A DNA stretch of 64,000 bases from Acidimicrobiia bacterium (GTDB lineage Bacteria > Actinomycetota > Acidimicrobiia > Acidimicrobiales > SHLQ01): positions 2,147,645 through 2,211,644 of the forward strand of contig JAWPMS010000001.1 in NCBI GenBank assembly GCA_033344795.1, read 5' to 3'. The position numbers were made by a program, and so were the translations under genes. Below are positions 24,031 through 40,833 of this stretch, piece by piece (position 1 is the first letter of the stretch; every line of letters begins with the position of its first letter). The notes under the pieces were generated by a model, which saw nothing but the letters and a program-made list of their open reading frames with translations, was not told where the DNA came from and did not search any database.

Positions 24031-25800
24031 ATGACACGAATGACGCCCAGTGAGGCATTTGTCGAGACGATGGTTGCCAATGGTGTCGATACCACCTTCG
24101 GCATCATGGGTTCGGCGTTCATGGACGCGATGGACATCTTCGCTCCGGCCGGAATTCGCCTCGTACCCGTCGTGCATGAGCAGGGCGCAGCCCACATGGC
24201 AGACGGGTATGCGCGCGTCTCGGGCCGTCACGGTGTCGTGATCGGTCAGAACGGGCCGGGTATCTCCAACTGTGTCACGGCGATTGCGGCAGCCTTCTGG
24301 GCTCACACTCCGGTCGTGATCGTGACCCCACAGACGGGCTCGGGCGGCATTGGTTTGGGCGGCTTTCAAGAAGCCAACCAGCTGCCGATGTTCGAGGAGT
24401 TCTGCAAGTACCAAGGCCAGGTCGACAACGAGAGCCGGATGGCCGAGATCACCGCACGGGCCTTCGACCGTGCAATTTCCGACATGGGGCCAACTCAGAT
24501 CAACATTCCTCGCGATCGTTTCTATGGCGACATCGACGTCGAGATTCCACAGCCAAAACGCCTCGATCGTGGTCCCGGCGGATCACGGACCCTGGATGAA
24601 GCAGCGGCCCTGCTCGCAGAAGCCACCTTCCCCGTCATGGTCAGCGGTGGTGGCGTCGTGCAGGGCGATGCGATGGACGAAGCAGTGGCCCTCGCAGAAC
24701 GTCTCGGATGCCCGGTGGTCAACAGCTACCTCCACAACGACTCGTTCCCAGCCAGCCACCCGCAGTGGACGGGCCCGCTTGGGTATCAGGGTTCAAAGGC
24801 CGCAATGAAGCTGGTCAACAAGGCCGACGTCGTGCTTGCACTCGGGACGCGCCTTGGTCCGTTCGGAACACTGCCACAACACGACATGGACTACTGGCCC
24901 AAGGACGCCAAGATCATCCAGGTCGACGCAGACCACAAGATGCTTGGCCTGGTGAAGCCTGTTTCGGTCGCCATTCATGGTGATGCGGGCGAAGCCGCAG
25001 TTGCGCTCCTCGACCGCCTCAACGACGGTCGCACCCTCGCCTGTGACGCAACCAAAGATGAGCGCGCCGCCACGACACAAGCGGAAAAGGACGCATGGGA
25101 AGCCGAGCTCGACGAGTGGATTCACGAGAAGGATGACTTCTCACTCGAGATGATCGAGGAAGCCAAGAACGAAGAAGGCAACTGGCTGCACCCGCGTCAA
25201 GTACTTCGTGAACTGGAGAAGGCGATGCCTCCCCGAGTCATGGTCTCGACCGACATCGGCAACATCAACTCCGTGGCGAACAGCTACCTGCGCTTCGAGG
25301 AGCCGAGAAGTTTCTTTGCCGCTATGAGCTGGGGCAACTGTGGCTACGCTCTGCCGACGATCATCGGAGCCAAGGCGGCCGCTCCCGATCGTCCAGCCAT
25401 CTCCTACGCAGGCGACGGCGCGTGGGCTATGAGCATGACCGAGATTCTCACGGCAGTGCGCCACGACATCCCGGTCACCGCAATCGTCTTCCACAACCGC
25501 CATTGGGGCGCCGAGAAGAAGAACCAGGTCGACTTCTACGGTCGTCGCTTCGTCGCAGGCGAACTCAACGGTGGCGAGAACTTCGCAGAGATCGCCGAGA
25601 CATTTGGCGCTGTTGGCGTGCGCGTCGACGACATCGACAACGTCGGTCCGGCGCTCAAGGCCGCAATCGATGCGCAGATGAACGAAGGCAAGACCACCGT
25701 GATCGAGATCATGTGCACCAAGGAGTTGGGCGACCCGTTCCGCAAGGATGCGCTCTCGAAGCCTGTGCGCCACTTGCCCAAGTACAAAGACTACGTCTGA
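24031..25800 (+). CDS. xsc: sulfoacetaldehyde acetyltransferase (ThDP-dependent)
   Basis: 589-aa ORF. N-terminus MTPSEAFVETMVANGV…GIMGSAF and ThDP motif GDGAWAMSMTEILTAVRHDIPVTAIVFHNRHWGAEKKNQVDFY match my memory of Xsc. Length is typical (about 590 aa). Confidence 0.8.
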   Translation: MTRMTPSEAFVETMVANGVDTTFGIMGSAFMDAMDIFAPAGIRLVPVVHEQGAAHMADGYARVSGRHGVVIGQNGPGISNCVTAIAAAFWAHTPVVIVTPQTGSGGIGLGGFQEANQLPMFEEFCKYQGQVDNESRMAEITARAFDRAISDMGPTQINIPRDRFYGDIDVEIPQPKRLDRGPGGSRTLDEAAALLAEATFPVMVSGGGVVQGDAMDEAVALAERLGCPVVNSYLHNDSFPASHPQWTGPLGYQGSKAAMKLVNKADVVLALGTRLGPFGTLPQHDMDYWPKDAKIIQVDADHKMLGLVKPVSVAIHGDAGEAAVALLDRLNDGRTLACDATKDERAATTQAEKDAWEAELDEWIHEKDDFSLEMIEEAKNEEGNWLHPRQVLRELEKAMPPRVMVSTDIGNINSVANSYLRFEEPRSFFAAMSWGNCGYALPTIIGAKAAAPDRPAISYAGDGAWAMSMTEILTAVRHDIPVTAIVFHNRHWGAEKKNQVDFYGRRFVAGELNGGENFAEIAETFGAVGVRVDDIDNVGPALKAAIDAQMNEGKTTVIEIMCTKELGDPFRKDALSKPVRHLPKYKDYV

Positions 25801-25920: not shown

Positions 25921-26844
25921 GTGAATGAACAGCCGACGGAACTGGTTGATGTTGAAGAGGTCTTCGGATTTCGGTCCGATCTGAAGGTGCAGGCGTTTGT
26001 CGAGCCCACCGAGTGGACGCCCCAGATCGATGATGCCTACCAGTTCGATCCAGAGGTAACGCTCGCCATCTTGTCGGGTTTCGTGCACAACCGCCGAGTG
26101 CTCGTTCAGGGTGCGCATGGCACAGGAAAGTCGACCCACATCGAACAGGTAGCGGCCCGGCTCAATTGGCCAGCCGTGCGCGTGAATCTCGATGGCCACA
26201 TCAGTCGCATGGACCTGGTTGGTCGCGACACCATCGTTGTGCGCGACGGTTTGCAGGTCACCGAATTCGCAGAAGGCATGTTGCCATGGGCGCTGCAGAA
26301 CCCCGTTGCGTTGATCTTCGACGAGTTCGATGCAGGGCGCCCGGACGTCATGTTCGTCATTCAGCGAGTTCTCGAAAAGGACGGCCGGCTGACACTGCTG
26401 GACCAGAATCGGGTCATCACCCCGCATCCAGCGTTTCGCCTTTTCGCCACAGCGAACACGGTTGGTCTGGGCAACCTGACGGGCCTGTATCACGGGACGC
26501 AGGTGCTCAATCAAGCACAGATCGACCGTTTCAACGTCGTTGCGACCCTCAACTACCTCTCTCCGGAATCGGAGATCGACATCGTGCTCGCCCAAGTGCC
26601 TGACGCGAACCGCGAAACCGTTGCGAAGATGGTGGCGGTGGCCGGACTCAGCCGTGACGGCTTCGCGGCTGGCGATCTGTCGACGGTGATGTCTCCACGA
26701 ACGGTGATCAGCTGGGCGGAGAACGACGTCATCTTCGACGATGTCGGAGCGGCGTTCCGTCTTGCGTTCGTCAACAAGTGTGACGAGGCCGAACAACCGA
26801 TCGTCGGCGAGTACTTCCAACGAGCGTTCTCACAAGAACTCTGA
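25921..26844 (+). CDS. cobS: cobaltochelatase subunit CobS (MoxR-type AAA+ ATPase)
   Basis: 307-aa ORF (GTG start). …[33 protein letters not shown]…[41 protein letters not shown] follows the CobS pattern. Confidence 0.8.
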
Positions 26845-26854
26845 GGACCACTGC

Positions 26855-28540
26855 ATGGATGCGGAGAGTCGACGCCTCGAACGCAGCGGTGCCGCTGTCG
26901 TGCGCGCACTGGGTCGGTCTCCTCGCGCCGAGTATCGAGCTCGGGTCCTCGAGGTGGACGACCGTCCAGTCGCCGTGTCCACTCCGTACCTCACGGATGA
27001 CCAAGCGGGCGAGTCGCCGGCGCGCGGAATCTACGATGCCCTTGGTGCCCGGCTTCGCTACAGCGAACGAGCGCTGCATGAATCCCTGCAACCTGATGAC
27101 ATCGTTGCTCGGGTCGTGTTCGACATGGTCGAACAGCTGCGCTGCGAGTCGCAGATTCCGGACGAACTCGTCGGGGCGCGAGAGAACATCGAGGTGGCGT
27201 TTCGTCGCTGGTGCGCCGGCCAGGAACTCACTCGGACTGCCATCGGATTGTTGCTCTTCACCGTGCTGCAGATGGCGCGGGCACGCCTCATCCGCCCCAT
27301 TCACGACGAGTTGATCGAGGATCAGATCGAAGCGACGAGAGCGAACATCTCACCGATCATCGGGGTCGCTCTGAAAGGACTCAAGGAGCACCGGACCGAT
27401 CAGCGCCAGTTCGCTGTGCCGGCGCTCTCGCTGGCGAACGCCATTGCCGAGATGGTGTCAAGCGAGACAGAGCTGGACCCCGGCGACACCGAGGCCAGCA
27501 TCGGTGCGCTCTTCATCCCGCCGGAGTGGGGTGCGGATGATCCGAAGGAGGGCGATGCGGCTATCGGAGCTACAGCGAGATCGGCCGACCGAGCAGACGC
27601 GGCTTCATTGGATCGGGTTGGTGGGTACCACGTGTTCACTCGTGAGTACGACCAAGAGCTTCGCGCGGAGTCGCTCTACCCTCGTGACGCGCGCCGCGAA
27701 CTTCGTGCATCCCTCGACGACCAGATTGCCGCACAATCGGTGAGTCCGTTCACGCTCGCTCGACGATTGCAACGGCTCTTTCTCGGGTTTGAGCGCGATG
27801 GGTGGCGATCGGGCGAGGAGCACGGCCTTCTCGATGCCGCCCGCCTGGGTCAGATCGTCGCCAACCCGGCCAACCGGACCGTCTTTCGACAGGAACGCTT
27901 TCGCCCCGTGGCTCCTGCGGTGGTCTCGTTTCTGATCGACAACAGCGGCTCGATGAAGCGGCAGCGACATGAGACGGTGACGGTACTCGTCGACACGCTC
28001 AGTCGGGCGCTCGATCTCGCCGGAGCCCGCAGCGAAATTCTCGGCTTCACAACGGCCAGCTGGAACGGCGGCGAAGCACTTCGTGAATGGCGTCGGGCGG
28101 GTGAACCCGATGCTCCAGGAAGGCTGGCCGAAACGAGTCATCTGATCTACAAGGACGCCGACACGTCGTGGAAGCGGAGCCGGCTCGCCGTGGCGTCGAT
28201 GATGAAGACGCACCACTTTCGCGAAGGCATCGACGGCGAGGCGATCGTGTGGGCCTACCGACGCCTGCTCGGCCGTCCTGAGCCGCGCAAACTTCTCGTG
28301 GTCATCAGTGATGGCGCCCCGATGGAAGCAGCGACGATGAACGCCAACGGCGAGTCGTTCCTCGAGGCACACCTTCGTAGCGTGGTGCACTCCATCGAGC
28401 GGGAGGGTGAGGTCGAGATCGGGGCGGTGAGCATCGACCAGCCGGTGGACTCGCTGTTCGGTCGATCGGTCGAGATGGATCTGTCCGGCACCCTCACGCT
28501 TGGCGAATATGGCCTGCTGGAGCGCCTCTTCCGCCGATAA
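26855..28540 (+). CDS. cobT: cobaltochelatase subunit CobT (VWA-domain protein)
   Basis: ORF 26741..28540. ATG 26855 chosen because it lies downstream of the cobS stop. C-terminal VWA/MIDAS segment VSFLIDNSGSM. Confidence 0.7.
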   Translation: MDAESRRLERSGAAVVRALGRSPRAEYRARVLEVDDRPVAVSTPYLTDDQAGESPARGIYDALGARLRYSERALHESLQPDDIVARVVFDMVEQLRCESQIPDELVGARENIEVAFRRWCAGQELTRTAIGLLLFTVLQMARARLIRPIHDELIEDQIEATRANISPIIGVALKGLKEHRTDQRQFAVPALSLANAIAEMVSSETELDPGDTEASIGALFIPPEWGADDPKEGDAAIGATARSADRADAASLDRVGGYHVFTREYDQELRAESLYPRDARRELRASLDDQIAAQSVSPFTLARRLQRLFLGFERDGWRSGEEHGLLDAARLGQIVANPANRTVFRQERFRPVAPAVVSFLIDNSGSMKRQRHETVTVLVDTLSRALDLAGARSEILGFTTASWNGGEALREWRRAGEPDAPGRLAETSHLIYKDADTSWKRSRLAVASMMKTHHFREGIDGEAIVWAYRRLLGRPEPRKLLVVISDGAPMEAATMNANGESFLEAHLRSVVHSIEREGEVEIGAVSIDQPVDSLFGRSVEMDLSGTLTLGEYGLLERLFRR

Positions 28541-28658
28541 GCACGGTCAGCTGCCCGGACACCCAAAGTCCATGTGATTGGTTGTACGGACCAAAAACTC
28601 GCGTGCTCTTCACGTTGGTCGGTGCTACGCCACGGCAGAGCTTCCTACGGTGCTCGGC

Positions 28659-29345
28659 GTGACCAAGAGTGCATTTCCAGTAGCGAGGCCGTATCCGGTC
28701 AATCTCCGACTTGCCGGCAAACCGGTCCTTGTCGTCGGCGCGGGGAATGTCGCCGTGCGCAAGGTGGGGCAGCTCCTCGCATCGGGCGCCGCCGTCACGG
28801 TCGTCGGTTTGCAGGTGGATCCCCGACTCTTCGGTCTCGCAGCTGAATCCCGTGGCCCGGGATCGGGTTCGGTGAGTATCGAACAGCGGGCCTACGAGGT
28901 GGGCGAGGTTGCCGCTTACATGCTCGCGATCACCTGCACCGACGACGGAGCCGTAAACAGTCGAGTGCACGATGACGGACTCGTGGCGGGTGTGTGGGTC
29001 AACTCCGCTGACGATCCGACGAACTGTGAATTCACGTTGCCGTCTGTTGTACGAACTGGTGATCTGCAGATTGCGATTTCGACAGAGGGGCGCTCACCAG
29101 CCCTTGCCATGTGGTTGCGACAGCGTTTCGAGCACGAGTTCGGCGGTGAGTGGGGAGAACTGCTCGATGTGCTGTCCGACGTCCGAGATGAGGCAAGACG
29201 CGAATTGGGAACCTCTGAGTTGGCCGGGTGGATCGGTGCCCTCGATTCGGTCATTCCCCGTTGGCTCGAGCGGGCGAATCCCGACGAGGCCCGTGAAACA
29301 CTTCGTCACCACCTTGGGCTGAAAGATCTGGAGCAGGTTCGATGA
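28659..29345 (+). CDS. precorrin-2 dehydrogenase / sirohydrochlorin ferrochelatase (SirC/CysG N-terminal-like)
   Basis: ORF 28578..29345. Rossmann motif LAGKPVLVVGAGNVAVRKV. Start uncertain: TTG 28578 or GTG 28659. Confidence 0.7.
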   Translation: MTKSAFPVARPYPVNLRLAGKPVLVVGAGNVAVRKVGQLLASGAAVTVVGLQVDPRLFGLAAESRGPGSGSVSIEQRAYEVGEVAAYMLAITCTDDGAVNSRVHDDGLVAGVWVNSADDPTNCEFTLPSVVRTGDLQIAISTEGRSPALAMWLRQRFEHEFGGEWGELLDVLSDVRDEARRELGTSELAGWIGALDSVIPRWLERANPDEARETLRHHLGLKDLEQVR

Positions 29346-30130
29346 CCGTTCACCTCGTTGGCGCTGGACCGGGCGATCCCGAACTGTTGACGATCCGCGC
29401 GGCTCGTTTGCTTGGTTCCGCGGACGTGGTTGTTCACGACAGACTCATCGGCGACGGAATCATGGAGATGATCGCTCCCTGGGCCGAACGAATCGACGTG
29501 GGCAAAGACCCGAATGGACACTCGGTGCCACAGTCTGTGATCAACGAGCTTCTCGTCGGCTACGGACGTAGCGACCTTCTCGTGGTGCGGCTCAAGGGAG
29601 GCGATCCATTCGTCTTCGGGCGCGGCGGCGAGGAAGCAATCGCGCTCGCTGCGGCCGGTATCGCCTGCGAGGTTGTTCCTGGGATCACCTCTGCGCTCGC
29701 CGGTCCGGCAGCCGCCGGGATACCGGTGACACATCGAGGGCTCTCGAGTGGTTTCACCGTCATCACCGGTCACCAGAATCCAGACAATCCGCAGCGCCTC
29801 GATTGGGATGCGGTGGCCAGACTTGGAACGACGCTCGTGGTGCTCATGGGCGCAGCTCGGGCGTCGCAGATCCGCGCTCGCCTGCTCGAGGGCGGGGCTC
29901 CTCCGGATACGCCGGTCGCCATCGTGACCCGGGCGACCTGGCCGGATCAATCGACGGGGCGATGTGTGTTGAGCGACCTCGGAAACGCGGCCGTGGAAAA
30001 CCCATCGATCATCGTGATCGGGCCAGCCGCGGCCCTCGAGCTGACCTCGCTCGCCACCACGGTGGCAAACCTCGAACAAACCGACCGTTCTCCCGTACTT
30101 GTATCTGAAGGAGCAAAACCATGGCAGTGA
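29342..30130 (+). CDS. cobA: uroporphyrinogen-III C-methyltransferase (SUMT)
   Basis: 262-aa ORF. VHLVGAGPGDPELLTIRAARLL…VVRLKGGDPFVFGRGGEE. ATGA overlap with the upstream gene. Confidence 0.85.
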   Translation: MTVHLVGAGPGDPELLTIRAARLLGSADVVVHDRLIGDGIMEMIAPWAERIDVGKDPNGHSVPQSVINELLVGYGRSDLLVVRLKGGDPFVFGRGGEEAIALAAAGIACEVVPGITSALAGPAAAGIPVTHRGLSSGFTVITGHQNPDNPQRLDWDAVARLGTTLVVLMGAARASQIRARLLEGGAPPDTPVAIVTRATWPDQSTGRCVLSDLGNAAVENPSIIVIGPAAALELTSLATTVANLEQTDRSPVLVSEGAKPWQ

Positions 30131-31926
30131 TCAACCCGCCGACCACGACCATCGATCTACGTCCTCGCCCGGTGACCGACCCCGACATCTTGGGTGACAT
30201 CGCGAAGTTCGACGAGATGCTCGCCAAGTACTTGGCAGGCGATGTCGATGAGGACGTCTTCCGAGTCTTTCGGCTGACCAATGGCATCTACGGTCAGCGG
30301 CAAGGTGGTCGAAACCAAATGATCCGGGTGCGTATGCCGTACGGCTCGATCACCGCCGACCAACTGGACATGCTTGGATTCGTCGCGCAGCACTACTCGC
30401 GACAGTGGGGCCACATCACGACCCGCCAGAACATCCAGATGCACTTCGTCCAGTTGGAAAAGATTCCCGAAGTGCTCCGACACCTGGGTTCTGTTGGACT
30501 TACAACCCGGGAGGCGTGTGGTGACACCATTCGCAACGTCCAAGGGTGTCACCTGGCGGGCGCGTGCCCGTATGAAGTCCTCGATGTGAGCGCATGGGCC
30601 GAGGCAGCGAACGATCACTTCATTCGCAACCCCCTCGGTCAGCGCTTGCCGCGCAAATTCAAGATCAACTTCTCCGGCTGCGAGACGGACTGCGGGCAGG
30701 CGATGTTCAACGATGCTGGGGTCATCGCGGTCACTCGCACCCGCCCTGATGGAACGATCGAAGCAGGATTTCGAGTCTTCGTTGCAGGCGGGCTCGGAGC
30801 AAACCCGCACGCTGCCTTGGCCGTCGAAGAGTTCACGACAAAAGAAGATCTGCTCCCGACGGTCGAAGCAATCTTGCGGGTGTTCGAACAAACGGGCAAC
30901 AGGAAGAACAAGCTGCGGGCCCGGATGAAGTGGGTTGTCGACGAGCTGGGCTGGGAGGAGACCCAACAACGCATTCTCGACAGCCGACGCCTGTTGGTCG
31001 CCTCGTCGAGTTGGCCTGGAGGGATTCCCATGGCCGTACAAGAGTCGGGCGACGCGCCCGCTGGCCGTGGGGTTGGCGAAAGTACCGCCATCGGACAGGG
31101 CATCAACGTGTCGTTCGGGGCCCGAACGGGGTTCGATCGGTGGGAAGCGGCGAACGTCGTGCGCGGCGCAGCGAACGGCACCGTCTCCGCATATGCGTGG
31201 TGCAGGCTCGGCGACATCACCGTCGAGCAGTTCCACGGCATGGCCGCAATCGTGCGTGACTTCGATGTTGAGGTGCGAGCGACGAATCGGCAGAACTTCA
31301 TTCTTCGAGGCCTGCGAGATGATCAGCTCGCCGCGCTGTACAAGCGCCTGACCGAGCTGGACATGGCACAGCCCGGGGCTGAGCTGGTGCGAGATGTCGT
31401 GTCGTGCCCCGGAGCCGACACCTGTGGGCTCGCAGTCACACAATCTCGTGGCTTGGCCTCGGCAATCGGCGATGAGTTGGAAGCCCATGGTCTGGCGGAG
31501 GTCTCTGGCGTCCGGATCAACATCAGTGGATGTACAAATTCGTGTGGGCACCACCACACCGCCGACATTGGATTCTTCGGTGTGGAACGACGAGCGCACG
31601 GCCAGTCGGCCCCCGGTTATCAAATGTTGCTCGGAGGCCATGTCGGTCAGGAACAGATCGCGTTTGGGGAGAAGGCGCTTCGTGTACCTGCAAAGGCTGC
31701 GCCGGAGGCGGCCATCCGTGTGCTCCGCCGCTACGTGGAGGAGCGATCGGTGAGCGAGCGCTTCAGCGATTGGATGAATCGAGTAGGTGGGGCATCCGCG
31801 ATAGCCGACGACCTGCGCGATCTCGGGGCCTTTCCTGAACCGCTCGACCGCCCTGACTTCTACATCGACTACGGCGAGACAAGTCCGTACATAAAGGAAG
31901 TTGGAGCCTCCGAATGCGCCACATGA
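30121..31926 (+). CDS. ferredoxin-type sulfite (nitrite/sulfite) reductase hemoprotein
   Basis: 601-aa ORF with duplicated NiR/SiR modules. Cys cluster SCPGADTCGLA…SGCTNSCGHHH for siroheme-[4Fe-4S]. Overlaps the cobA end by 10 nt. Confidence 0.8.
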   Translation: MAVINPPTTTIDLRPRPVTDPDILGDIAKFDEMLAKYLAGDVDEDVFRVFRLTNGIYGQRQGGRNQMIRVRMPYGSITADQLDMLGFVAQHYSRQWGHITTRQNIQMHFVQLEKIPEVLRHLGSVGLTTREACGDTIRNVQGCHLAGACPYEVLDVSAWAEAANDHFIRNPLGQRLPRKFKINFSGCETDCGQAMFNDAGVIAVTRTRPDGTIEAGFRVFVAGGLGANPHAALAVEEFTTKEDLLPTVEAILRVFEQTGNRKNKLRARMKWVVDELGWEETQQRILDSRRLLVASSSWPGGIPMAVQESGDAPAGRGVGESTAIGQGINVSFGARTGFDRWEAANVVRGAANGTVSAYAWCRLGDITVEQFHGMAAIVRDFDVEVRATNRQNFILRGLRDDQLAALYKRLTELDMAQPGAELVRDVVSCPGADTCGLAVTQSRGLASAIGDELEAHGLAEVSGVRINISGCTNSCGHHHTADIGFFGVERRAHGQSAPGYQMLLGGHVGQEQIAFGEKALRVPAKAAPEAAIRVLRRYVEERSVSERFSDWMNRVGGASAIADDLRDLGAFPEPLDRPDFYIDYGETSPYIKEVGASECAT

Positions 31927-31965: not shown

Positions 31966-32724
31966 GTGACATTGCAGCTTGACCGAAGTAGCCCCATGCC
32001 CCTCTGGGCGCAGCTCGAAGCCGAGCTTCGCCGACGCCTCGACGCAGGTGAATTCGACGACGGGTTCCCGACCGACGCGCAATTGGTCAATCGATACGAG
32101 GTCAGTCGCCACACGGTGCGTGAGGCGATTCGGCAACTCAACAAGACGGGGGTGCTACGACGCGAGCGGGGCCGCGGGACGGTCGTCAATCGAGCGGAGT
32201 TCGAGCAACCGCTCGGCGGTTTGTACAGCCTCTTCAAGTCGATCGAATCGGCAGGTGTCGTGCAGACCAGCACCGTGCTCGAAGTGGGTGCGGTGCAAAA
32301 TGCGGAAGCAGCAATGCATCTCGGGCTCCACGAAGAGGTCGAATTGTTCTTTCTCGAACGGATTCGGTTCGCGGGTGATCTGCCGTTGGCCGTCGATCGG
32401 GCGTGGCTTCCCTTGAGCTTGGCGGCGCCGCTGCTCGACGCCGACTTCTCGCACACGGCGCTCTACGACGAACTCGAACGATCGTGCGGGATTCGTCCGA
32501 ACCGAGGTTGGGAACGCCTGATGCCCGTTCTGCCAAGCTTCGCTGATCGGGATCGCCTTGGACTGAAACGCAATGACGCAGCCTTCTTCCTGGAAAGGCT
32601 TGGTCAGCACAACAATGAGACGATCGAGTGGCGAACGACGACGATCCGGGGAGACCGCTACCGCTTCGTCGCGGACTGGTCGTCGAACGACGGTGGAGGT
32701 CTCCAACTCCACGCGCAGGTCTGA
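31966..32724 (+). CDS. GntR-family (HutC/UTRA subfamily) transcriptional regulator
   Basis: 252-aa ORF. wHTH FPTDAQLVNRYEVSRHTVREAIRQLNKTGVLRRERGRGTVV. An alternative ATG start lies at 31996. Confidence 0.8.
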   Translation: MTLQLDRSSPMPLWAQLEAELRRRLDAGEFDDGFPTDAQLVNRYEVSRHTVREAIRQLNKTGVLRRERGRGTVVNRAEFEQPLGGLYSLFKSIESAGVVQTSTVLEVGAVQNAEAAMHLGLHEEVELFFLERIRFAGDLPLAVDRAWLPLSLAAPLLDADFSHTALYDELERSCGIRPNRGWERLMPVLPSFADRDRLGLKRNDAAFFLERLGQHNNETIEWRTTTIRGDRYRFVADWSSNDGGGLQLHAQV

Positions 32725-32835
32725 GGGTTATCCACAGAACTCGTTGCCAACAGGGACCTGTTGAGGCTTGGTGCCAGAGGTCACCAGTTGGCCGCGTGGG
32801 ATTCTCGTGAATCCGCCTTAACATTTCGCCCCGAT

Positions 32836-33513
32836 ATGAAAAGTTACAATTCTGTTACGTCCCAGCGTCGTTCCGTCGTACTTGCGATCCTCGCCGCAAC
32901 TGCGCTGGTGACCATCTTCGGCATGTCCATCAGTGGAGCCCAAGATCTCGAGCCAGAGGTCATCGAGGTCGTCGAAGCTCCTCCGGTAGTCGAAGAGCCG
33001 GCGGTCGTCGAAGCAGCTGCGCCGCCGGCCCCAGAAGTGGCAGAACTCATCCTCCAGCTGGAGGAGCGCGATGCGCGTATCGCGGTACTGCACGAACAGC
33101 TGATCTTCCTTCAGCAGGCAGCACTTTCGAGCGAATTGCAGGCTGACGCCGAACGTGACACCTTCCTCGAAGAACAACAGGATCTGCGTGTGACCGAGCA
33201 GTTCCAGGAGCAGGCGATGGCAGAGTGGCGGATGGGTTACTCGCTCGCTGGCGGCAAAAACCTACGGTCCTTCGAAACGATCATTCTCCCGTGCGAATCG
33301 GGTGGCGAAGCCGATCCGGACGCAGCCGTTGGCCCGACCGACGACTGGGGTCGAGCGCAGATCAATCGTCCGACATGGTCGGTTCGGTTCACCGAACTCA
33401 CCGGAGCGTCGTTCGAAGAAAACATCGGCACGCCGATTCTGAACGGCTACATGGCTGCTCATGTCGAAAGTGAACAAGGCCTCAGCGCCTGGACGTGCTG
33501 GCGCAAGCGGTAG
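32836..33513 (+). CDS. secreted protein with coiled-coil region and C-terminal Rpf/transglycosylase-like domain
   Basis: ORF 32761..33513. ATG 32836 gives a TM/signal segment VVLAILAATALVTIFG. C-terminus CESGGEADP…WGRAQINRPTW…LSAWTCW resembles the Rpf lysozyme-like fold. Confidence 0.55.
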   Translation: MKSYNSVTSQRRSVVLAILAATALVTIFGMSISGAQDLEPEVIEVVEAPPVVEEPAVVEAAAPPAPEVAELILQLEERDARIAVLHEQLIFLQQAALSSELQADAERDTFLEEQQDLRVTEQFQEQAMAEWRMGYSLAGGKNLRSFETIILPCESGGEADPDAAVGPTDDWGRAQINRPTWSVRFTELTGASFEENIGTPILNGYMAAHVESEQGLSAWTCWRKR

Positions 33514-33787: not shown

Positions 33788-34446
33788 CAGACGCCGAGCA
33801 TCGGCGGTAGGTCTCGGAGATCACTGAGGAGGTGTGATCCGGGCACTCGTTCTTTCAGGAGTTGCTCGTCTCGCTGGATGCCGTAGGCGTCGAGGCCCAG
33901 GGTCAACGCCAAGGTCACATCGTGTGTCGTGTCCCCGACGAAGGCGATTCGAACATCATTGAGAGATCGGCCATCGAAATGGTGTCGCAAGATTCGCTGC
34001 ACGTGCGCTGCGCCCTTTTCTCCGATGTTTGGGTCATCGGAGCCCAGCGCAATTGGTATAGAGCGAGCGAGCCCAGAGTCATGAAGCTTTTTCTCGACCG
34101 ACGCGCACGAGGATCCGCTGGAGATGCCAAGGGGGACTCGACTCGCGACGAGTTGCGCCACACAGTCATCGGCGTCTGCGAACGCCGCGAACGTCGAACC
34201 TTCAACGTGCTTCCAAAAATCTGTTTCGAGCGCGTCGAGCGTGCTGAGATCAGAAGTAGAGATCGCTTCGCTGAATTGTTGTCGGAGGGGCGCTCCCGCA
34301 GTGGCGTGGTACACGCGCTCAGCCTCGGCATAGGTGGTCGACGTCGCCTTCGAGATCTCGACGGCAGTGGCAAAGGCTGTGGCTTGTGTCCCCATGCTGT
34401 CGATGAGCGTGCCGTCGAGGTCGAAGATCACGAGGTCGGGCGTCAT
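33787..34446 (-). CDS. HAD-superfamily hydrolase (phosphoglycolate-phosphatase-like)
   Basis: 219-aa ORF. Motif I VIFDLDGTLIDS. ATGA overlap with the upstream LysR gene. Confidence 0.8.
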   Translation of the reverse strand: MTPDLVIFDLDGTLIDSMGTQATAFATAVEISKATSTTYAEAERVYHATAGAPLRQQFSEAISTSDLSTLDALETDFWKHVEGSTFAAFADADDCVAQLVASRVPLGISSGSSCASVEKKLHDSGLARSIPIALGSDDPNIGEKGAAHVQRILRHHFDGRSLNDVRIAFVGDTTHDVTLALTLGLDAYGIQRDEQLLKERVPGSHLLSDLRDLPPMLGV

Positions 34447-35357
34447 GTGTTGAGCTGTTGCGACACCAGATCGGCCAGGAGCGCAGCGGCCAGCTTCGGA
34501 AGAGGCTTCCCGCTCGGCCAGACCGCGCGCAGATCTCGGTTGATCTGCAGTCCTTGGACGTTGACCTCGATGAGCTGGCCATCCCGCAGCTCGCTGGCTA
34601 CCGCGAGCTGACTGATGACGGTGGGGGAGTTGCCGCCGAGAACTGCACTGCGAACCGCCGAGGTCGAACCGAGTTCGAACACCGAGACCGGGGGTCCGTG
34701 ACCGGCTTCGAGAAGCGCCTGCTCCAATGCTTCACGCGTGCCGGATCCCTTTTCGCGCATGACGAGGGGTGTCTCGGCGAGTTCGACCATGGTCACCGAC
34801 TCTTGTGCGGCCCATGGATGGTCGGGCCGTACAACGGTGACCAGTCGATCATGCGCGATGATCGCCTCCTGCATCGACGGAGTCTCCAAGGGCGTCTCGA
34901 TGAAACCGATGTCTGCCTCACCGCGCTCGAGCTCGGCGAGCACGTGTGTCGAATTAGCCACATCGAGCGCGACCGTGTCCCGCGGGTGTTCCCGGACGAA
35001 GCGGCCCAGCCAACCCGGGAGCAGGTACTCCGCAATGGTGTAGCTCGCCGAGATTCGAAGCCGGCCAACTTGCTCCGCCTTGAGCGCCTCGAGGCCGGCC
35101 TCGAGATCGTGCGCCGCACGCAGAATTGCATCGGTCCAGCCCGAGACGACGATTCCCTCTGATGTTGGCGAGGACCCAGTGGGAGACCTCTCGAGCAATG
35201 TCACGCCGAGTTGGCGTTCGAGATTGCGAATTCGGCTACTCGCCGACGGCTGCGCGATGCCATGGATCTTCGCGGCGCGACCGAGGCTTCCGAGCTCGAC
35301 GACCGACGCATACAAGTCGAGTGCGGTGAGATCGGGAAAGCTTGCGGAGAGTGGCAT
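34443..35357 (-). CDS. LysR-family transcriptional regulator
   Basis: 304-aa ORF. HTH LDLYASVVELGSLGRAAKIHGIAQPSASSRIRNLERQLGV. Confidence 0.85.
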   Translation of the reverse strand: MPLSASFPDLTALDLYASVVELGSLGRAAKIHGIAQPSASSRIRNLERQLGVTLLERSPTGSSPTSEGIVVSGWTDAILRAAHDLEAGLEALKAEQVGRLRISASYTIAEYLLPGWLGRFVREHPRDTVALDVANSTHVLAELERGEADIGFIETPLETPSMQEAIIAHDRLVTVVRPDHPWAAQESVTMVELAETPLVMREKGSGTREALEQALLEAGHGPPVSVFELGSTSAVRSAVLGGNSPTVISQLAVASELRDGQLIEVNVQGLQINRDLRAVWPSGKPLPKLAAALLADLVSQQLNT

Positions 35358-35358
35358 G

Positions 35359-35377
35359 CCATAGATGATAGCTATGG
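35359..35377. promoter_or_regulatory. inverted repeat CCATAG-N7-CTATGG (LysR-box-like T-N11-A geometry) at the lysR / FeS-NrfD divergent junction
   Basis: Read from sequence immediately upstream of the lysR start codon. Confidence 0.4.
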
Positions 35378-35433
35378 GGCCATTGGTCAGAGGTGCCTTC
35401 TATGAGGTGTGCCCGATCACACATGATGTCAGA

Positions 35434-36978
35434 GTGACAAAACTGGGCTTTCTTCTCGACAGTGACAACTGCATTGGTTGTCACGCATGCACGGTTGCGT
35501 GCAAGAGCGAACACGACGTACCGCTCGGTGTGAATCGAACATGGGTGAAATACATCGAAACGGGAACCTTCCCCGATGTTGCTCGCAAGTTCAACGTGAT
35601 GCGCTGCAACCAATGTGAGGATGCGCCATGTATGACGATCTGCCCGACCTCGGCCCTCTTCCGTGCCGACAACGGCGTGGTCGACTTTCAAGATGATGAC
35701 TGCATCGGGTGCAAGTCGTGCATGAACGCATGCCCGTACGACGCGCTGTACATCAACCCGGAAACCAACACGGCGCACAAGTGCAACATGTGCAACCACC
35801 GGTTGGAGCAGAACCTCGAACCGTCGTGCCAGATCGTGTGTCCCACCGAGGCCATTATCATCGGTGACCTCGACGACCCGACGTCAAAGATCAGCCAGAT
35901 GATCGCCAGAAACGACGTCTCCGTGAGGTCGCCAGAACAGAACACGAAACCCAAGGTGTTCTACAAGGGCGCCGACCAGGCGTCGCTTGATCCAACCCGC
36001 ACAGCGATCGCAAACGACGGCATGATCTGGGCCGATACCACACCAGATCACCCATCCGTTGCCGTCACGATTGGCAAGAAACCCCTCGACATGGACGGTG
36101 TCGTCGCACGCACGGCCTACACCACCAAACACAAGCCGACCTGGGGTCAGATGGTCTCCGGATATCTCGTCACCAAGGCGATTGCCGGTGGCGCGATGCT
36201 CATCGCGGCGCTGATGGTTTTGCTCGGACATTCCAACCAGCAAGGCGCTGTTGGCATCATGGCTCCGCTCGTCGGGCTCGTCTTCCTCGGCATCACCAGC
36301 GCACTGTTGGTTCTCGACCTGAAGCAGCCGACCCGCTTCTATTACCTGCTGACCAAGGGCAACTTCTCCTCGTGGCTGGTGAAGGGCGCCTACGTGCTGA
36401 TGGCGTTCGGCGCCGTGAGCGGCGCGTGGTTGCTTGCCGGCATCCTCGAGGCAGATGGTCTGATCAAGGTGCTGGCGATACCTGCGGCGCTCGCCGGTAT
36501 GGCGACCGCTGGATACACGGCATTTCTCTTTGCGCAGTGTGAGGGGCGAGATCTTTGGCAGACGCCGCTGCTGTTGCCGATGTTGTTGGCCAGGGCCGTT
36601 ACCGCTGGGGCCGCGGCGTGGATGATCGCCGACGTCTTCATGGACGTTCGTGACCCCGACGCTGTTCGATACGCACTTATCGGCGGTGTTGTTGGCGTGC
36701 TCGCTCTCAGCTGGATGGAGACGGTCAGTCACGGTTCCCGGCACGTTGAACTTGCTGTCCACAACATGGTGAAGGGCGAGAATGCCTCGCTGTTCTGGGG
36801 AGGCATCCTCGTTGGGGCTGTCGTCCCGCTCGTCCTTGCCATCGTCGCGGTGACCGTCGGCGGGTCCGCGGGCTCAGCGGTTTCACTCAGCGCCTTTGCC
36901 GGGATCTTTGCTCTGATCGGCATGTTCCTTTCCGAAACCGCCTTCGTTCGCGCAGGCCAGTCCGTTCCTCTCTCCTGA
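35434..36978 (+). CDS. fused 4x[4Fe-4S] ferredoxin subunit (PsrB/DmsB-like) and NrfD/PsrC-like integral membrane subunit
   Basis: ORF 35365..36978. Four Cys clusters (CIGCHACTVAC, CNQCEDAPC, CIGCKSCMNAC, CNMCNHR…C) followed by about 8 hydrophobic helices. GTG 35434 (VTKLGFLLD) preferred as start, since ATG 35365 lies only 7 nt beyond the lysR start codon and inside its candidate LysR box. Confidence 0.75.
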   Translation: MTKLGFLLDSDNCIGCHACTVACKSEHDVPLGVNRTWVKYIETGTFPDVARKFNVMRCNQCEDAPCMTICPTSALFRADNGVVDFQDDDCIGCKSCMNACPYDALYINPETNTAHKCNMCNHRLEQNLEPSCQIVCPTEAIIIGDLDDPTSKISQMIARNDVSVRSPEQNTKPKVFYKGADQASLDPTRTAIANDGMIWADTTPDHPSVAVTIGKKPLDMDGVVARTAYTTKHKPTWGQMVSGYLVTKAIAGGAMLIAALMVLLGHSNQQGAVGIMAPLVGLVFLGITSALLVLDLKQPTRFYYLLTKGNFSSWLVKGAYVLMAFGAVSGAWLLAGILEADGLIKVLAIPAALAGMATAGYTAFLFAQCEGRDLWQTPLLLPMLLARAVTAGAAAWMIADVFMDVRDPDAVRYALIGGVVGVLALSWMETVSHGSRHVELAVHNMVKGENASLFWGGILVGAVVPLVLAIVAVTVGGSAGSAVSLSAFAGIFALIGMFLSETAFVRAGQSVPLS

Positions 36979-36988
36979 AAGCCTTGCG

Positions 36989-39853
36989 ATGACTGACCTA
37001 GACAAGTATCCGCCGCTCGAAGACTGGCATGACGTCACGAGCCTCGATGCCAAGGCATGGCCGACCAAGGTCGAAAAGCACCACACCCTGGTGCCAACGA
37101 GCTGCTTCAACTGCGAAGCCGGATGCGGGCTCACCGCGTGGTTCAACAAGGACACCGGCGAGATAGAGAAGGTCGAGGGCAACCCGGAGCATCCCGCCAG
37201 CCGTGGTCGCAACTGCGCCAAGGGCCCGGCAACGTTGAACCAGATCTATGACCCCGAGCGGATCATGTTCCCGATGAAACGTGTCGGCGAGCGGGGTTCA
37301 GGCGGTTGGGAGCGCATCAGCTGGGACCAGGCACTACAGGAGCTTGGTGCGCGGCTGCGAAAAGCGATGCAGGAAGAGCGTCACAACGAGATCATGTATC
37401 ACGTTGGCCGTCCCGGAGAAGAGGGTTACACCGACCGCGTGCTCAAGGCGTGGGGCGTAGATGGCCACAACAGCCACACAAACATCTGTTCATCGAATGC
37501 TCGCATTGGCTACCAGAGCTGGATGGGCCACGATCGCCCGTCCGCCGACTACGCGAACGCCGAGGTTATCTTCTTGATCTCGGCTCACCTCGAGTCGGGT
37601 CACTACTTCAACCCGCACGCACAACGAATCATCGAAGCCCAACAAAACGGTGCCACGGTCATCGTCTGCGACCCGCGTCTGTCGAATACCGGATCCAAGG
37701 CAGACCACTGGCTTCCCACCTGGCCGGGCACCGAACCGTTCCTGTGCCTCTCGATCATTCATCAGATGCTTGAGGACGACACCTGGAACAAGGAGTTCGT
37801 CGAACGTTGGGTGAACTGGGACACCTTTCTGGCAGAAGAGTTCCCCGACATGCCCAACGAGTTCGCCTCGCTTGGTCCCGCGCTCAAGGCGCATTACGCC
37901 GAGTACACCCCGGAAAAGGCTGAGTACATCACCGGGATTCCCGCCGAGCAGATCCGTGAGATCGCCAGCATCATCGGCAAACACCCAACCAAGTTCGCCT
38001 CACACAACTGGCGTGCCGCGGGCGCGGGAAACATGGGTGGCTGGCAGGTCGCTCGATGTCTCTTCTTCATCGCCGTGATGACTGGATCGGTGGCCACTGA
38101 AGGTGGCACCTCGGGCAACGGATGGAACAAGTTCGCTCCGGCTGCGCCGCTCGGCGCACCCGGTATCGAACGCTGGAACGATCTCGAATGGCCGAAGGAG
38201 TTTCCGCTCGCCTATCACGAAATGTCGATCCTCCTTCCGCACTTTCTCAACGAGGGACGAGGCAAACTCGACACCTACTTCTCTCGGGTCTACAACCCCA
38301 TCTGGACCAACCCGGACGGCTTCAGCTGGATGGAAGCGCTCACCGACCCCGACAAGGTCGAGTGCCACGTAGCGCTCACGCCAACCTGGAGCGAGACCGC
38401 TTGGTTCGCCGACTACGTCCTGCCAATGGGAGTTGGCGCGGAACGCCACGATGTCGTCAGCTATGAAACACATCAGGGCCGGTGGATCGCCTTTCGCCAG
38501 AGCGTGTTCCGTCGGTTTGCCGAGATAGAAGGCAAAGAGGTCAACGCCGATTCTCGCACCCACGAGTTCAACCCGGGCGAGGTCTGGGAAGAGAACGAAT
38601 TCTGGATCGACCTTTCGTGGGCGATCGACCCCGATGGCGAGATGGGCATCCGGCAGTACTTCGAGAGCGAAGAGAACCCGGGCAAGCCGATCGGCGTGGA
38701 CGAGTACTACGGCAAGATGTTCGCGGAGAACGTTCCGGGGCTGGCCGAAGACGCGGCAGCCGCTGGCGAAACCCCGCTCGAGTACATGCGCAACCGAGGC
38801 GCATACGCGCTCGAGGGCGATCAGCGCACGCCATACGAGCGCGATGTCGATCCGTCGGCAGTGGAAGGCTGCGTCAAGGACGAGGGCGGTGTCTTTCGCA
38901 AGCCCGGCACATCCGCCATGTGGGACGGCACGCCGGAAGGTTTGCAGGACATCAAACTCGCGCGACTCGGCGACGGATCTCCCGCAATCGAGATCGACGG
39001 CGAGATCAAAGAAGGTTTCGTCACCCCATCGAAGAAGCTCGAACTCTTCTCGACGACGCTCAAGGACTGGGGCTGGCCCGAGTACGCCACGCCGAAGTGG
39101 ATTCCGAGCCATGTGCACTGGGAAGACCTCGATATGGAGCCCGATGCCGAAGGTTCGCTCGGCAATGAACGAATCCTTCTGCCGACCTTCCGCATCCCCA
39201 CGCTCATCCACACCCGTTCGGCAAACAGCAAGTGGTTGAGCGAGATCAGTCACCGTCACCCGCTCTGGTTGCATCCCGAGGACGCCGAGAAGCTGAACAT
39301 CGCAGAGAACGGCCTCGTGCGGGTCACGACCCGAATTGGCCACTTCGTGATCAGCGCGTGGCAGACCGAGGGCATTCGTCCTGGCATCGTGGCGGCTTCG
39401 CACCACATGGGCCGCTGGCGTCTGGAAGAAGACAAGGCCCGCAGCTGGGGCGCTGGTAAGGCTGATATCAAGTTTCCAGAGCGCAAGCCTGACGAGCGTG
39501 GCGTATGGCAACTCAAGCGTACCGACGGGATTCGTACGTGGGATTCCGAGGACGACGACACGAACCGCATCTGGTGGACCGACACCGGTGTGCACCAGAA
39601 CCTCACGTTCGCCGTACAGCCCGACCCGATCTCCGGCATGCAGTGCTGGCATCAGCGTGTCCGAGTCACTCCGGCTGAGGCGGGGGATCAATACGGCGAT
39701 GTCGTCGTCGACACGAACAAGTCTCGCGAGGCCTACCTCGAGTGGCTAGCAAAGACCCGTCCGGCCCCCGGTCCCAATGGCTTGCGTCGCCCGCTCTGGT
39801 ATGCCCGCCCGCTCAAACCAACTGCGCCGACCTACCTCAGCCCCGACGCCTAA
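36989..39853 (+). CDS. molybdopterin (Mo-bisPGD) oxidoreductase catalytic subunit without Tat signal
   Basis: 954-aa ORF. N-terminal FS0 motif CFNCEAGCG…C(AKG). No RR twin-arginine leader in the first 45 residues. Confidence 0.8.
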   Translation: MTDLDKYPPLEDWHDVTSLDAKAWPTKVEKHHTLVPTSCFNCEAGCGLTAWFNKDTGEIEKVEGNPEHPASRGRNCAKGPATLNQIYDPERIMFPMKRVGERGSGGWERISWDQALQELGARLRKAMQEERHNEIMYHVGRPGEEGYTDRVLKAWGVDGHNSHTNICSSNARIGYQSWMGHDRPSADYANAEVIFLISAHLESGHYFNPHAQRIIEAQQNGATVIVCDPRLSNTGSKADHWLPTWPGTEPFLCLSIIHQMLEDDTWNKEFVERWVNWDTFLAEEFPDMPNEFASLGPALKAHYAEYTPEKAEYITGIPAEQIREIASIIGKHPTKFASHNWRAAGAGNMGGWQVARCLFFIAVMTGSVATEGGTSGNGWNKFAPAAPLGAPGIERWNDLEWPKEFPLAYHEMSILLPHFLNEGRGKLDTYFSRVYNPIWTNPDGFSWMEALTDPDKVECHVALTPTWSETAWFADYVLPMGVGAERHDVVSYETHQGRWIAFRQSVFRRFAEIEGKEVNADSRTHEFNPGEVWEENEFWIDLSWAIDPDGEMGIRQYFESEENPGKPIGVDEYYGKMFAENVPGLAEDAAAAGETPLEYMRNRGAYALEGDQRTPYERDVDPSAVEGCVKDEGGVFRKPGTSAMWDGTPEGLQDIKLARLGDGSPAIEIDGEIKEGFVTPSKKLELFSTTLKDWGWPEYATPKWIPSHVHWEDLDMEPDAEGSLGNERILLPTFRIPTLIHTRSANSKWLSEISHRHPLWLHPEDAEKLNIAENGLVRVTTRIGHFVISAWQTEGIRPGIVAASHHMGRWRLEEDKARSWGAGKADIKFPERKPDERGVWQLKRTDGIRTWDSEDDDTNRIWWTDTGVHQNLTFAVQPDPISGMQCWHQRVRVTPAEAGDQYGDVVVDTNKSREAYLEWLAKTRPAPGPNGLRRPLWYARPLKPTAPTYLSPDA

Positions 39854-40770
39854 CCTTCCGCTGAGCTGCGACAGGTGGTTCCGAGGCCCGGGTTGCCCAT
39901 CGTCGCGAAAGCCTGGGCTTGCGTTATTTCGGTGTTCGTCTCGGCTAGCTCAGTGGTCATCACGTCTTCGACAAGTCGATGATCGGTGACGGCGTACTCC
40001 CACGTGGCCGTATCGATCAATCCCGCTCTCCAGTCATCGAGCTGATCGTCAGCGACTGCTGCGACGTGATGCCGAATGAAGCTTCCTGTCTCGTCCGTTC
40101 GGCACTCTGTGTGCTCGAGAGTCCCGAAGCATCCGGCGCTGCTGCACCAGTTGCCGTAGAACGCCGTGTCCGTACGTTCGGTCGACAGTGCGAGCCGAAC
40201 TTCGCAGGCTGATAGGTCGGCGACCTCGATTCCGCCGTAGTTGTTCCCATTGCGTTGGAGGAGAAGCTCGTCGTCGCCGTCGTTGTCGAGGTCGGCAACA
40301 TCGGCGAGTTCGTAGCTCACATAGGCAGGCATAAGCGTTGTCCACCCCGCATCGCCGAGATCGATCTGGATGTCGCCATTTTCGTGCACGACGACGCGGT
40401 CGGGGGATCCGTCGCCATTCACGTCGACCTCGCTGAGACTGACCTGTGGGAGGTCGCTGCTTTGCCGGCTCGGCGGGATCTCGGTGAAGCCGTCGCGCCA
40501 TGCCGGCCCGGCGTAACAGCCGTCCTGGAGCTGTACGAACTCGGGCTCGGGTCTGGTACTTGTGAGCGGACTCGACGAGGCTGTCGCGGTACTCGTGGGC
40601 GGAGCTTCGGTCGGGTCGGGAGCGGTCGACGTCGTCGATGGGGGCTGCGTCGTGCTCGCCGTCGAGGGCGGCGGTGTCTGTTGAGAGGCTGCCTGTGGTT
40701 CAGACGAGCACGCGGCCGCGATGATTGCGAGCACGAAGATCAGTTGTCGCAGGGTGCGCGGCGCCGCCAT
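39850..40770 (-). CDS. lipoprotein with S/T/P-rich linker and FG-GAP/DxDxDG-type repeats
   Basis: ORF 39850..40827. ATG 40770 gives MAAPRTLRQLIFVLAIIAAAC (lipobox). Repeats DVNGDGSPDRVVV and DLDNDGDDELLL. Confidence 0.6.
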   Translation of the reverse strand: MAAPRTLRQLIFVLAIIAAACSSEPQAASQQTPPPSTASTTQPPSTTSTAPDPTEAPPTSTATASSSPLTSTRPEPEFVQLQDGCYAGPAWRDGFTEIPPSRQSSDLPQVSLSEVDVNGDGSPDRVVVHENGDIQIDLGDAGWTTLMPAYVSYELADVADLDNDGDDELLLQRNGNNYGGIEVADLSACEVRLALSTERTDTAFYGNWCSSAGCFGTLEHTECRTDETGSFIRHHVAAVADDQLDDWRAGLIDTATWEYAVTDHRLVEDVMTTELAETNTEITQAQAFATMGNPGLGTTCRSSAEG

Positions 40771-40833
40771 GATCTCACCGTACGTGCGCACCCGTCGTCG
40801 GTGAATGGGTGTTGCACCCGCCCGCAATCCCCG

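Follow-up and report, generated by a model that had tools for sequence, protein, structure and literature searches.

A fused ferredoxin-NrfD subunit and a molybdoenzyme without Tat leader in an Acidimicrobiia bacterium: a candidate cytoplasm-facing sulfite:quinone oxidoreductase

The DNA analysed here (the window) is a stretch of 64,000 nucleotides from an Acidimicrobiia bacterium (G000:C1:2147645-2211644), whose genome is complete (4.87 Mb, 61.6% G+C); homologues with names put it with the Acidimicrobiia, among Ilumatobacter-like marine Actinomycetota. It holds an operon unit of three genes: lysR on the minus strand and, on the plus strand, a gene for a fused iron-sulfur (FeS) and NrfD-type membrane subunit (BC) followed by a gene for a molybdenum-bis(pyranopterin guanine dinucleotide) (Mo-bisPGD) catalytic subunit (A). 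BC and A together span 35434-39853, and the pair is present as a single copy in the host genome. An earlier note on this DNA had proposed a cytoplasm-facing sulfite dehydrogenase of the SoeABC type. As set out below, the unit encodes a membrane-bound complex iron-sulfur molybdoenzyme of a separate, unnamed Psr/Phs-like clade, predicted to face the cytoplasm and more likely than not to act as a sulfite:quinone oxidoreductase. The features are collected in Table 1.

Table 1. Features of the window discussed in the text, with their positions and the matches on which they rest.
Feature	Position	Strand	Basis
Xsc, sulfoacetaldehyde acetyltransferase	24031-25800	+	TIGR03457, 1004 bits (cut-off 676)
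NirA/SirA-type sirohaem enzyme, 601 aa	30121-31926	+	Pfam NIR_SIR, NIR_SIR_ferr; sirohaem-branch genes before it
GntR/UTRA regulator	31966-32724	+	Pfam GntR, UTRA
LysR-family regulator	34443-35357	-	Pfam HTH_1, LysR_substrate; divergent from BC-A
Perfect inverted repeat CCATAG-N7-CTATGG, T-N11-A type LysR box	35359-35377		Between lysR start and BC start
Fused subunit BC, 514 aa	35434-36978	+	Four-[4Fe-4S] ferredoxin to ~36003, linker, NrfD/PsrC domain 36139-36960
Mo-bisPGD catalytic subunit A, 954 aa	36989-39853	+	Pfam Molybdop_Fe4S4, Molybdopterin, Molydop_binding

The gene for A begins 10 nt past the stop of BC, with no Shine-Dalgarno sequence visible before it. The cysteine motif of the FS0 cluster (C39-x2-C42-x3-C46...C76) is encoded at 37103-37216, and Cys167 (37487-37489) aligns with Cys173, the Mo ligand of Thermus PsrA. 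No RR motif of a twin-arginine translocation (Tat) leader was found in the 38 residues ahead of FS0; with the same script, PhsA, DmsA, FdnG and twelve Psr-like representatives showed S/TRRxFL at residues 4-10. The catalytic subunit is thus as first described, with FS0 and without a twin-arginine leader. Its best NCBIfam match was PhsA (202 bits; cut-off 694); no NCBIfam model reached its cut-off, and the Fdh and Dms models stayed far below theirs. The best match in the PDB was PsrA (2vpw_A, E 4.5e-36). Homologues of A carry public names that are either generic or 'formate dehydrogenase' or 'anaerobic selenocysteine-containing dehydrogenase', and the names in the ESM Atlas are generic. A convergent open reading frame (ORF) of 325 aa, at 39850-40827 (-), overlaps the stop of A by 4 nt; it has weak FG-GAP/New_glue matches only and no NCBIfam match, and may be a real gene or a shadow ORF.

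The longest ORF of BC runs from 35365 to 36978 (+) and would give 537 aa. Because the relatives of BC begin with MTRLGFLLD..., 11-12 residues ahead of the first CxxCxxC, the GTG at 35434 is most likely the true start and the length about that first estimated (515 aa). Pfam matches on the 537-aa ORF were Fer4_11 and related Fer4 families at residues 29-168 and NrfD at residues 259-532. Alignment of 22 fusions showed 16 invariant cysteines in four CxxCxxCxxxC-type groups, which makes four [4Fe-4S] clusters. The first cluster begins 12 residues past the likely start and leaves no room for a signal peptide, so that the partner of A is indeed a four-cluster ferredoxin joined to an NrfD domain in one unexported polypeptide. 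By sequence, the closest PDB entry was PsrB (2vpw_B, E 2.7e-45). In an AlphaFold2 model the membrane half was predicted as an eight-helix NrfD/PsrC domain at a pLDDT of ~90, and Foldseek matched it to PsrC (2vpw_C, TM 0.73 by target length). The mean pLDDT of whole BC was 69, with a poor FeS half and confidence in the membrane half only; the docking of the two domains therefore cannot be read from the model. With its Mo-bisPGD domains, cysteine at the Mo position, four-cluster module and NrfD/PsrC anchor, the pair has the features of a Psr/Phs-like complex iron-sulfur molybdoenzyme.

Membrane orientation was assessed by counting lysine and arginine residues (K+R) on homologous loops after alignment of the membrane domains. 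On the FeS side versus the other side, window BC has 13 versus 1, the full set of 25 fusions 11-16 versus 0-2, and the SoeC-type anchor of Azospirillum 12 versus 0. The bias is reversed in the Tat-type Sulfurovum anchor (5 versus 12) and small in the Tat-type anchor of locus L007 (5 versus 3); E. coli DmsC has 4 versus 6. Neither A nor BC carries a Tat or Sec leader. Given the positive-inside rule, the loop charges support a cytoplasmic FeS domain, predicted to hold the docked catalytic subunit on the same side, and the orientation proposed in the earlier note stands. The active site of SoeABC has been predicted to be cytoplasmic (PMC8076601).

Near-full-length homologues of BC numbered 7,862, and the best 120 all contained both domains; 349 short NrfD-only matches lay mostly on contigs of 1-2 kb and are for the most part contig-end fragments. 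The B-C fusion, which had been called an unusual architecture, is unusual only against the characterised enzymes and is the norm within its own family. Fused BC-A pairs without Tat leader were found in the window, in 15 further class genomes, in a genome from another family of the same phylum (G445), on plasmid pRHL3 of Rhodococcus jostii RHA1, on the megaplasmid of Thermomicrobium roseum, in Natrinema halophilum and on a Myxococcota contig; in all 15 other class genomes BC lies directly upstream of A. The enzyme was present in 21/151 genomes of the class (18/82 genera) and in 39/401 genomes of the phylum (32/254 genera), or 38/400 when the unpublished genome G262 is left out of the phylum tally. 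Presence is patchy even within a genus (1/4 genomes in genus g5). The sequencing runs in which the sequence occurs are DNA runs from seawater, rhizosphere, algae and macroalgae metagenomes and from individual organisms, with no RNA run listed.

SoeABC is the sulfite:quinone oxidoreductase of Allochromatium vinosum, Aquifex aeolicus and Ruegeria pomeroyi. In place of A. vinosum SoeA, the proxy was taken from an operon of soeABC type that is linked to xsc on plasmid p4 of Azospirillum brasilense. It encodes a 998-aa molybdoprotein without Tat leader, a 251-aa FeS protein and a 319-aa DmsC/NrfD-type anchor, and is followed by xsc after one small hypothetical gene. Relatives of the proxy SoeA numbered at least 599 in species-representative genomes; the best 80 were 61-98% identical, and xsc lay within 6 kb in 4 of these 80 loci. 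One of the four, a Rhodobacterales locus with xsc-pta-soeABC, backs the use of the proxy; such an arrangement has been reported for R. pomeroyi. Plasmid matches from Sulfitobacter and Pseudosulfitobacter that had also been sampled as SoeA candidates turned out to be formate dehydrogenases. SoeABC has been assigned by >30% similarity and >50% coverage to the A. vinosum proteins together with operon structure (PMC6382920); measured against the Azospirillum proxy, not against A. vinosum, window A falls short of orthology to SoeA (21% identity, 22% gaps).

A phylogeny was built with IQ-TREE from 45 rows and 757 columns. The nine SoeA-type rows formed one clade (100/100), which joined PhsA and Psr-like representatives, and window A fell into another 100/100 clade, of 17 rows. 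The Psr/Phs-like group holding the window clade had 97/95 support and left FdnG and DmsA outside. The SoeA clade and the window clade also stayed apart in a tree without PhsA and the long rows. Across both free trees the window clade stood alone or with Tat-bearing Psr-like representatives, and SoeA with PhsA or a Psr-like representative. When the two clades were held together, the approximately unbiased (AU) test gave p = 0.093, which is not significant. Sisterhood with the SoeA clade is thus disfavoured, and a separate origin is favoured by the trees, not proven. As a statement of family membership, the SoeABC-type label of the earlier note consequently fails on low identity, a separate clade, gene order and fusion; for a Soe-like layout it stands as a working analogy. 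A phylogeny was the check that the note had asked for: A does not group with SoeA, nor with a clade of different known function, the window clade being without a characterised member.

Tat-bearing proteins also occur in the window clade (the metagenomic sequences P0249, P0310 and P0289). A fourth relative of split layout, on a Sulfurovum mangrovi plasmid, has its catalytic gene outside the tree and the Tat check. B and C are separate genes in each of the loci examined (L007, L012 and L120); a TorD/NarJ-type chaperone gene and an extra FeS protein gene lie downstream in L007 and L012, which are of Campylobacterota type, and L120 shows neither. Fusion thus tracks the loss of the Tat leader: within one clade, Tat-bearing members keep B and C separate and Tat-less members fuse them. 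It is plausible that a folded FeS subunit riding the Tat pathway cannot be tethered to a membrane protein, and the rule suggests that B and C are free to fuse when the FeS subunit no longer has to leave the cytoplasm in folded form. Since the clade has Tat-bearing members with split B and C and a TorD-type chaperone, the inward orientation most simply arose within it. On the S. mangrovi plasmid (NZ_CP087125.1; L012 8001-11136) the catalytic gene matches in two pieces without an annotated CDS, flanked by nrfD, a TorD-family chaperone gene and a gene for a 379-aa FeS protein; it may be a pseudogene, or the plasmid table may be incomplete.

The neighbours of BC-A in relatives are mostly genes of sulfur metabolism. 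Genes for Lactamase_B+Rhodanese (persulfide-dioxygenase-type) proteins and/or DsrE plus TusA homologues lie within ~8 kb of the pair in 11 of the 15 other class genomes. The usual order there is ArsR-DsrE-TusA-BC-A, with ArsR-DsrE-TusA directly ahead of BC-A in seven of them and on pRHL3. Among the remaining four, one has an ArsR homologue only, one (G098) a divergent LysR gene, and two have none. The RHA1 proteins that served as probes for these genes belong by Pfam to Lactamase_B+Rhodanese, DrsE_2 and TusA. The same persulfide-dioxygenase/DsrE/TusA context was found on pRHL3 and on the Myxococcota contig; in Thermomicrobium a gene for a CsoR-family (metal-sensitive) regulator precedes BC-A. 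A gene for an Mrp/NBP35 FeS-cluster carrier overlaps the end of A on pRHL3 (L009 11799-12968) and in Natrinema (L098 11897-13057). It may encode a dedicated maturation factor; the two homologues in the host genome lie ~0.6 Mb from BC-A.

The closest link to a sulfite-releasing enzyme was found on contig C537 of G445 (locus L117, 9,168 bp), which reads ackA(-), xsc(-), class-III aminotransferase(+), lysR(-), BC(+) and A(+, truncated where the contig stops). The locus contains a pair of near-identical ATAG-N7-CTAT boxes (2756 and 5536), one 85 bp upstream of xsc in the gap between xsc and the aminotransferase gene and one 54 bp upstream of lysR; two or more such boxes were obtained in shuffles with P = 0.0025. 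This arrangement points to one regulon for sulfite release and the molybdoenzyme in the G445 lineage. The gap between lysR and BC in L117 is AT-rich and 670 bp long. In the window, the junction of lysR and BC-A holds the inverted repeat that had first been noted there (CCATAGATGATAGCTATGG). CCATAG-N7-CTATGG has this single match in the window even at one mismatch and none in 100 shuffles; for its core, ATAG-N7-CTAT, 7 matches were counted in the 4.87-Mb genome, two in L117 and none in the other 21 loci scanned (~378 kb). Among the relatives that share the LysR arrangement, the closest, G098 (L102), has an adjoining divergent LysR 57% identical to that of the window; it lacks the core and carries a different palindrome, CTATG-N6-CATAG, so that conservation of the box rests on one other lineage only. 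The LysR of G445, in the same position, is only 31% identical to that of the window, which makes their common descent uncertain. No NCBIfam model reached its cut-off on the window LysR, and a promoter and terminator scan of the locus gave no promoter-like site and nothing informative. The operon is probably controlled by LysR through the ATAG-N7-CTAT box.

Sulfite is the common denominator of these neighbours, pointed to by Xsc in the window and in G445 and by persulfide dioxygenases in most of the other lineages. The substrate, the quinone, the way in which electrons flow and the regulation are proposed on the basis of observed domains, cofactor residues, orientation, phylogenetic position, fusion and gene contexts. 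Intracellular sulfite, from Xsc and from the persulfide dioxygenases of the genome, would reach the Mo-bisPGD centre of A and be converted to sulfate by oxygen-atom transfer. Two electrons would then pass from FS0 through the four [4Fe-4S] clusters of BC to a quinone site in the NrfD domain, the quinone presumably being menaquinone. Such an enzyme would work like SoeABC, with its Tat-less clade members built as fused B-C in the order BC-A. The sulfite-oxidising role first suggested is plausible in this form, and it has gained from the G445 cluster with its common box and from the persulfide-dioxygenase/TusA/DsrE contexts. Linkage to xsc of a like kind in canonical SoeABC also speaks for it. 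We see even chances that the two-protein family evolved on its own as a second sulfite:menaquinone oxidoreductase facing the cytoplasm, serves as the chief sulfite sink inside many Actinomycetota, Thermomicrobia, haloarchaea and Myxococcota, and is wired to persulfide detoxification or, as in the window and in G445, to the breakdown of sulfonates under a LysR regulator.

Several observations weigh against sulfite oxidation by BC-A. The Xsc of the window is real, and it is the sulfite-releasing step of a sulfonate pathway encoded at ~11.6-25.8 kb; the neighbourhood invoked in the earlier note is looser than it implied, as xsc lies 9.5 kb upstream of BC-A with about ten genes between and an IclR neighbour of its own, and no second LysR box was found in the window. 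Across the phylum Xsc was found in 5/401 genomes, three of them with the enzyme, and in the class in 3/151, all three with it. This association speaks for the role and is suggestive (Fisher one-sided p = 0.007 for the phylum, 0.047 without the genome of the window), the p values being overstated since related genomes are not independent, and 18 of the 21 class genomes with the enzyme have no Xsc. Other sulfite sinks are possible: the NirA/SirA-type protein may be a sulfite or nitrite reductase or have a role in corrin synthesis, and a 584-aa SUOX-fold protein encoded ~9 kb past the end of the window (G000:C1:2220449-2222203; L099 1111-2865, -), which has an Oxidored_molyb domain, matches Mo-co_dimer weakly and is extended by 300 residues at its N-terminus, may be an alternative sulfite oxidase. 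Function cannot be carried over by orthology from SoeA, because of the low identity and the separate 100/100 clades. A literature search for a description of the fused BC-A family found nothing, nor is an assay of any clade member known. The DsrE and TusA neighbours, lastly, would also fit protein-bound sulfane sulfur or thiosulfate as substrate.

This last point leads to the strongest competitor, in which the same inward-facing enzyme would oxidise or reduce thiosulfate, polysulfide, tetrathionate or the sulfane sulfur of TusA/DsrE with the quinone pool. PhsA and PsrA are its nearest named and solved relatives by score, ArsR-DsrE-TusA stands directly ahead of BC-A in seven class genomes and on pRHL3, and the neighbouring dioxygenases carry rhodanese domains; CstB-type dioxygenase-rhodanese fusions yield thiosulfate as well as sulfite. 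Quinol-driven reduction of thiosulfate or polysulfide in the cytoplasm would, however, remake sulfide beside genes that remove it, the equivalog cut-offs of PhsA and all other models are missed widely, and the tight xsc-aminotransferase-lysR-BC-A cluster of G445 with its common box is left unexplained, sulfite being the only inorganic sulfur product there. We hold this substrate range to be unlikely, if well short of negligible. Much less credible is a substrate unrelated to sulfur metabolism, such as formate or an N- or S-oxide. The public names that call A homologues formate or selenocysteine-containing dehydrogenases speak for it, and sequence alone cannot give the substrate; yet FdnG and DmsA branch outside the Psr/Phs-like group, A comes nowhere near the cut-offs of the Fdh and Dms models, and sulfur genes recur beside BC-A where formate, dimethyl sulfoxide (DMSO) or trimethylamine N-oxide (TMAO) genes do not. 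Marginally less probable still is that BC-A is a divergent true SoeABC, sister to proteobacterial SoeA, with one ancestral switch to the cytoplasm and a later B-C fusion. The lack of a Tat leader, the same subunit content, an anchor polarity like that of SoeC and the AU test, which leaves the joint clade unrejected, would agree with it; both free trees set the two clades apart, the sequences have little identity and many gaps, the gene order is BC-A against A-B-C, and the window clade has Tat-bearing split members with a TorD-type chaperone. Sulfite oxidation by a separate lineage thus remains our preferred explanation.

The wider surroundings of the unit were annotated as follows. Ahead of BC-A the window encodes HisD-like and DegT-like proteins, a class-III aminotransferase, a tauABC-like transporter, a pyridoxal phosphate (PLP) decarboxylase, Pta, TetR, an iron-containing alcohol dehydrogenase (Fe-ADH), IclR and Xsc, then CobS/CobT, sirohaem-branch genes, the NirA/SirA-type enzyme, GntR, an ORF at 32761-33513 that has no family match, and a HAD protein. 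The decarboxylase is of group II (Pyridoxal_deC) and lies at 18603-20123, between the tauC-like permease gene and pta. At 25921-31926, genes for CobS and CobT come first, CobN being absent from the window; precorrin-2 dehydrogenase-like and SUMT genes come next and lead up to the NirA/SirA-type gene, on whose product the NirA family, nitrite reductase, CysI and CobG models of NCBIfam were all below their cut-offs. Homologues of the GntR/UTRA regulator (53-55% identity) directly adjoin BC-A in four loci (L103, L104, L105 and L109); in the window the ORF without family match, the HAD gene and lysR stand between. Two shorter SUOX-fold genes occur elsewhere in the host genome, as do three persulfide-dioxygenase homologues, each at least 370 kb from BC-A.

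Sulfite, which is toxic, arises in the metabolism of sulfonates, cysteine and sulfide, and many aerobic heterotrophs that release it have, to our knowledge, no recognised cytoplasmic sulfite dehydrogenase. The BC-A family would, if our reading is true, fill that gap for the marine and soil carbon-sulfur cycle; about one in ten of the Actinomycetota genomes sampled has it, and it extends to Chloroflexota-like, haloarchaeal and myxobacterial genomes. Metagenome inventories name it generically or as formate dehydrogenase and might file it under polysulfide reductases; a tested function would correct this. In a study of the crab-gill microbiome that has much on Ilumatobacter, 'psrA (K08352)' was enriched (PMC10463870). 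Surveys based on KEGG may be counting the BC-A family as psrA, or polysulfide reductase. R. jostii RHA1, which carries the pair on pRHL3, is genetically tractable.

Compared with known systems, the two window proteins have their best solved and NCBIfam matches in PsrABC (Thermus thermophilus, PDB 2VPW) and PhsABC, and share with PsrABC the cysteine at the Mo-ligand position and an anchor with the fold of PsrC. PsrABC and PhsABC are exported by Tat and work on the periplasmic side, whereas A has no Tat motif and the charge polarity of the window anchor is the reverse; they are built from separate subunits, with a cytochrome b as PhsC, and the window proteins stay below the cut-offs of their models. 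With SoeABC the likeness lies in a Mo-bisPGD subunit of ~950-1000 aa with FS0 and without Tat leader, a four-cluster FeS module with an NrfD-type anchor, the same positive-inside polarity of that anchor and an occasional genetic linkage to xsc. SoeABC differs in having three separate genes in the order A-B-C, where the window has two, a fused B-C gene and then A; moreover, the window clade contains Tat-bearing members, and the usual neighbours of the window family are persulfide dioxygenase, TusA and DsrE genes. The Tat-bearing sister lineage belongs to the same 100/100 clade, has B and C before A as in the window and shares a YPPxxxWxxW-type motif ahead of FS0 that is common to all clade members, but it bears a Tat leader on A and encodes B and C separately. 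The cst-type clusters (CstA/CstB/CstR) of Staphylococcus aureus resemble the surroundings of BC-A in its relatives by their regulator, DsrE/TusA carriers and dioxygenase-rhodanese fusions; they have no molybdoenzyme, and in the host genome such genes lie at the distance given above from the window pair.

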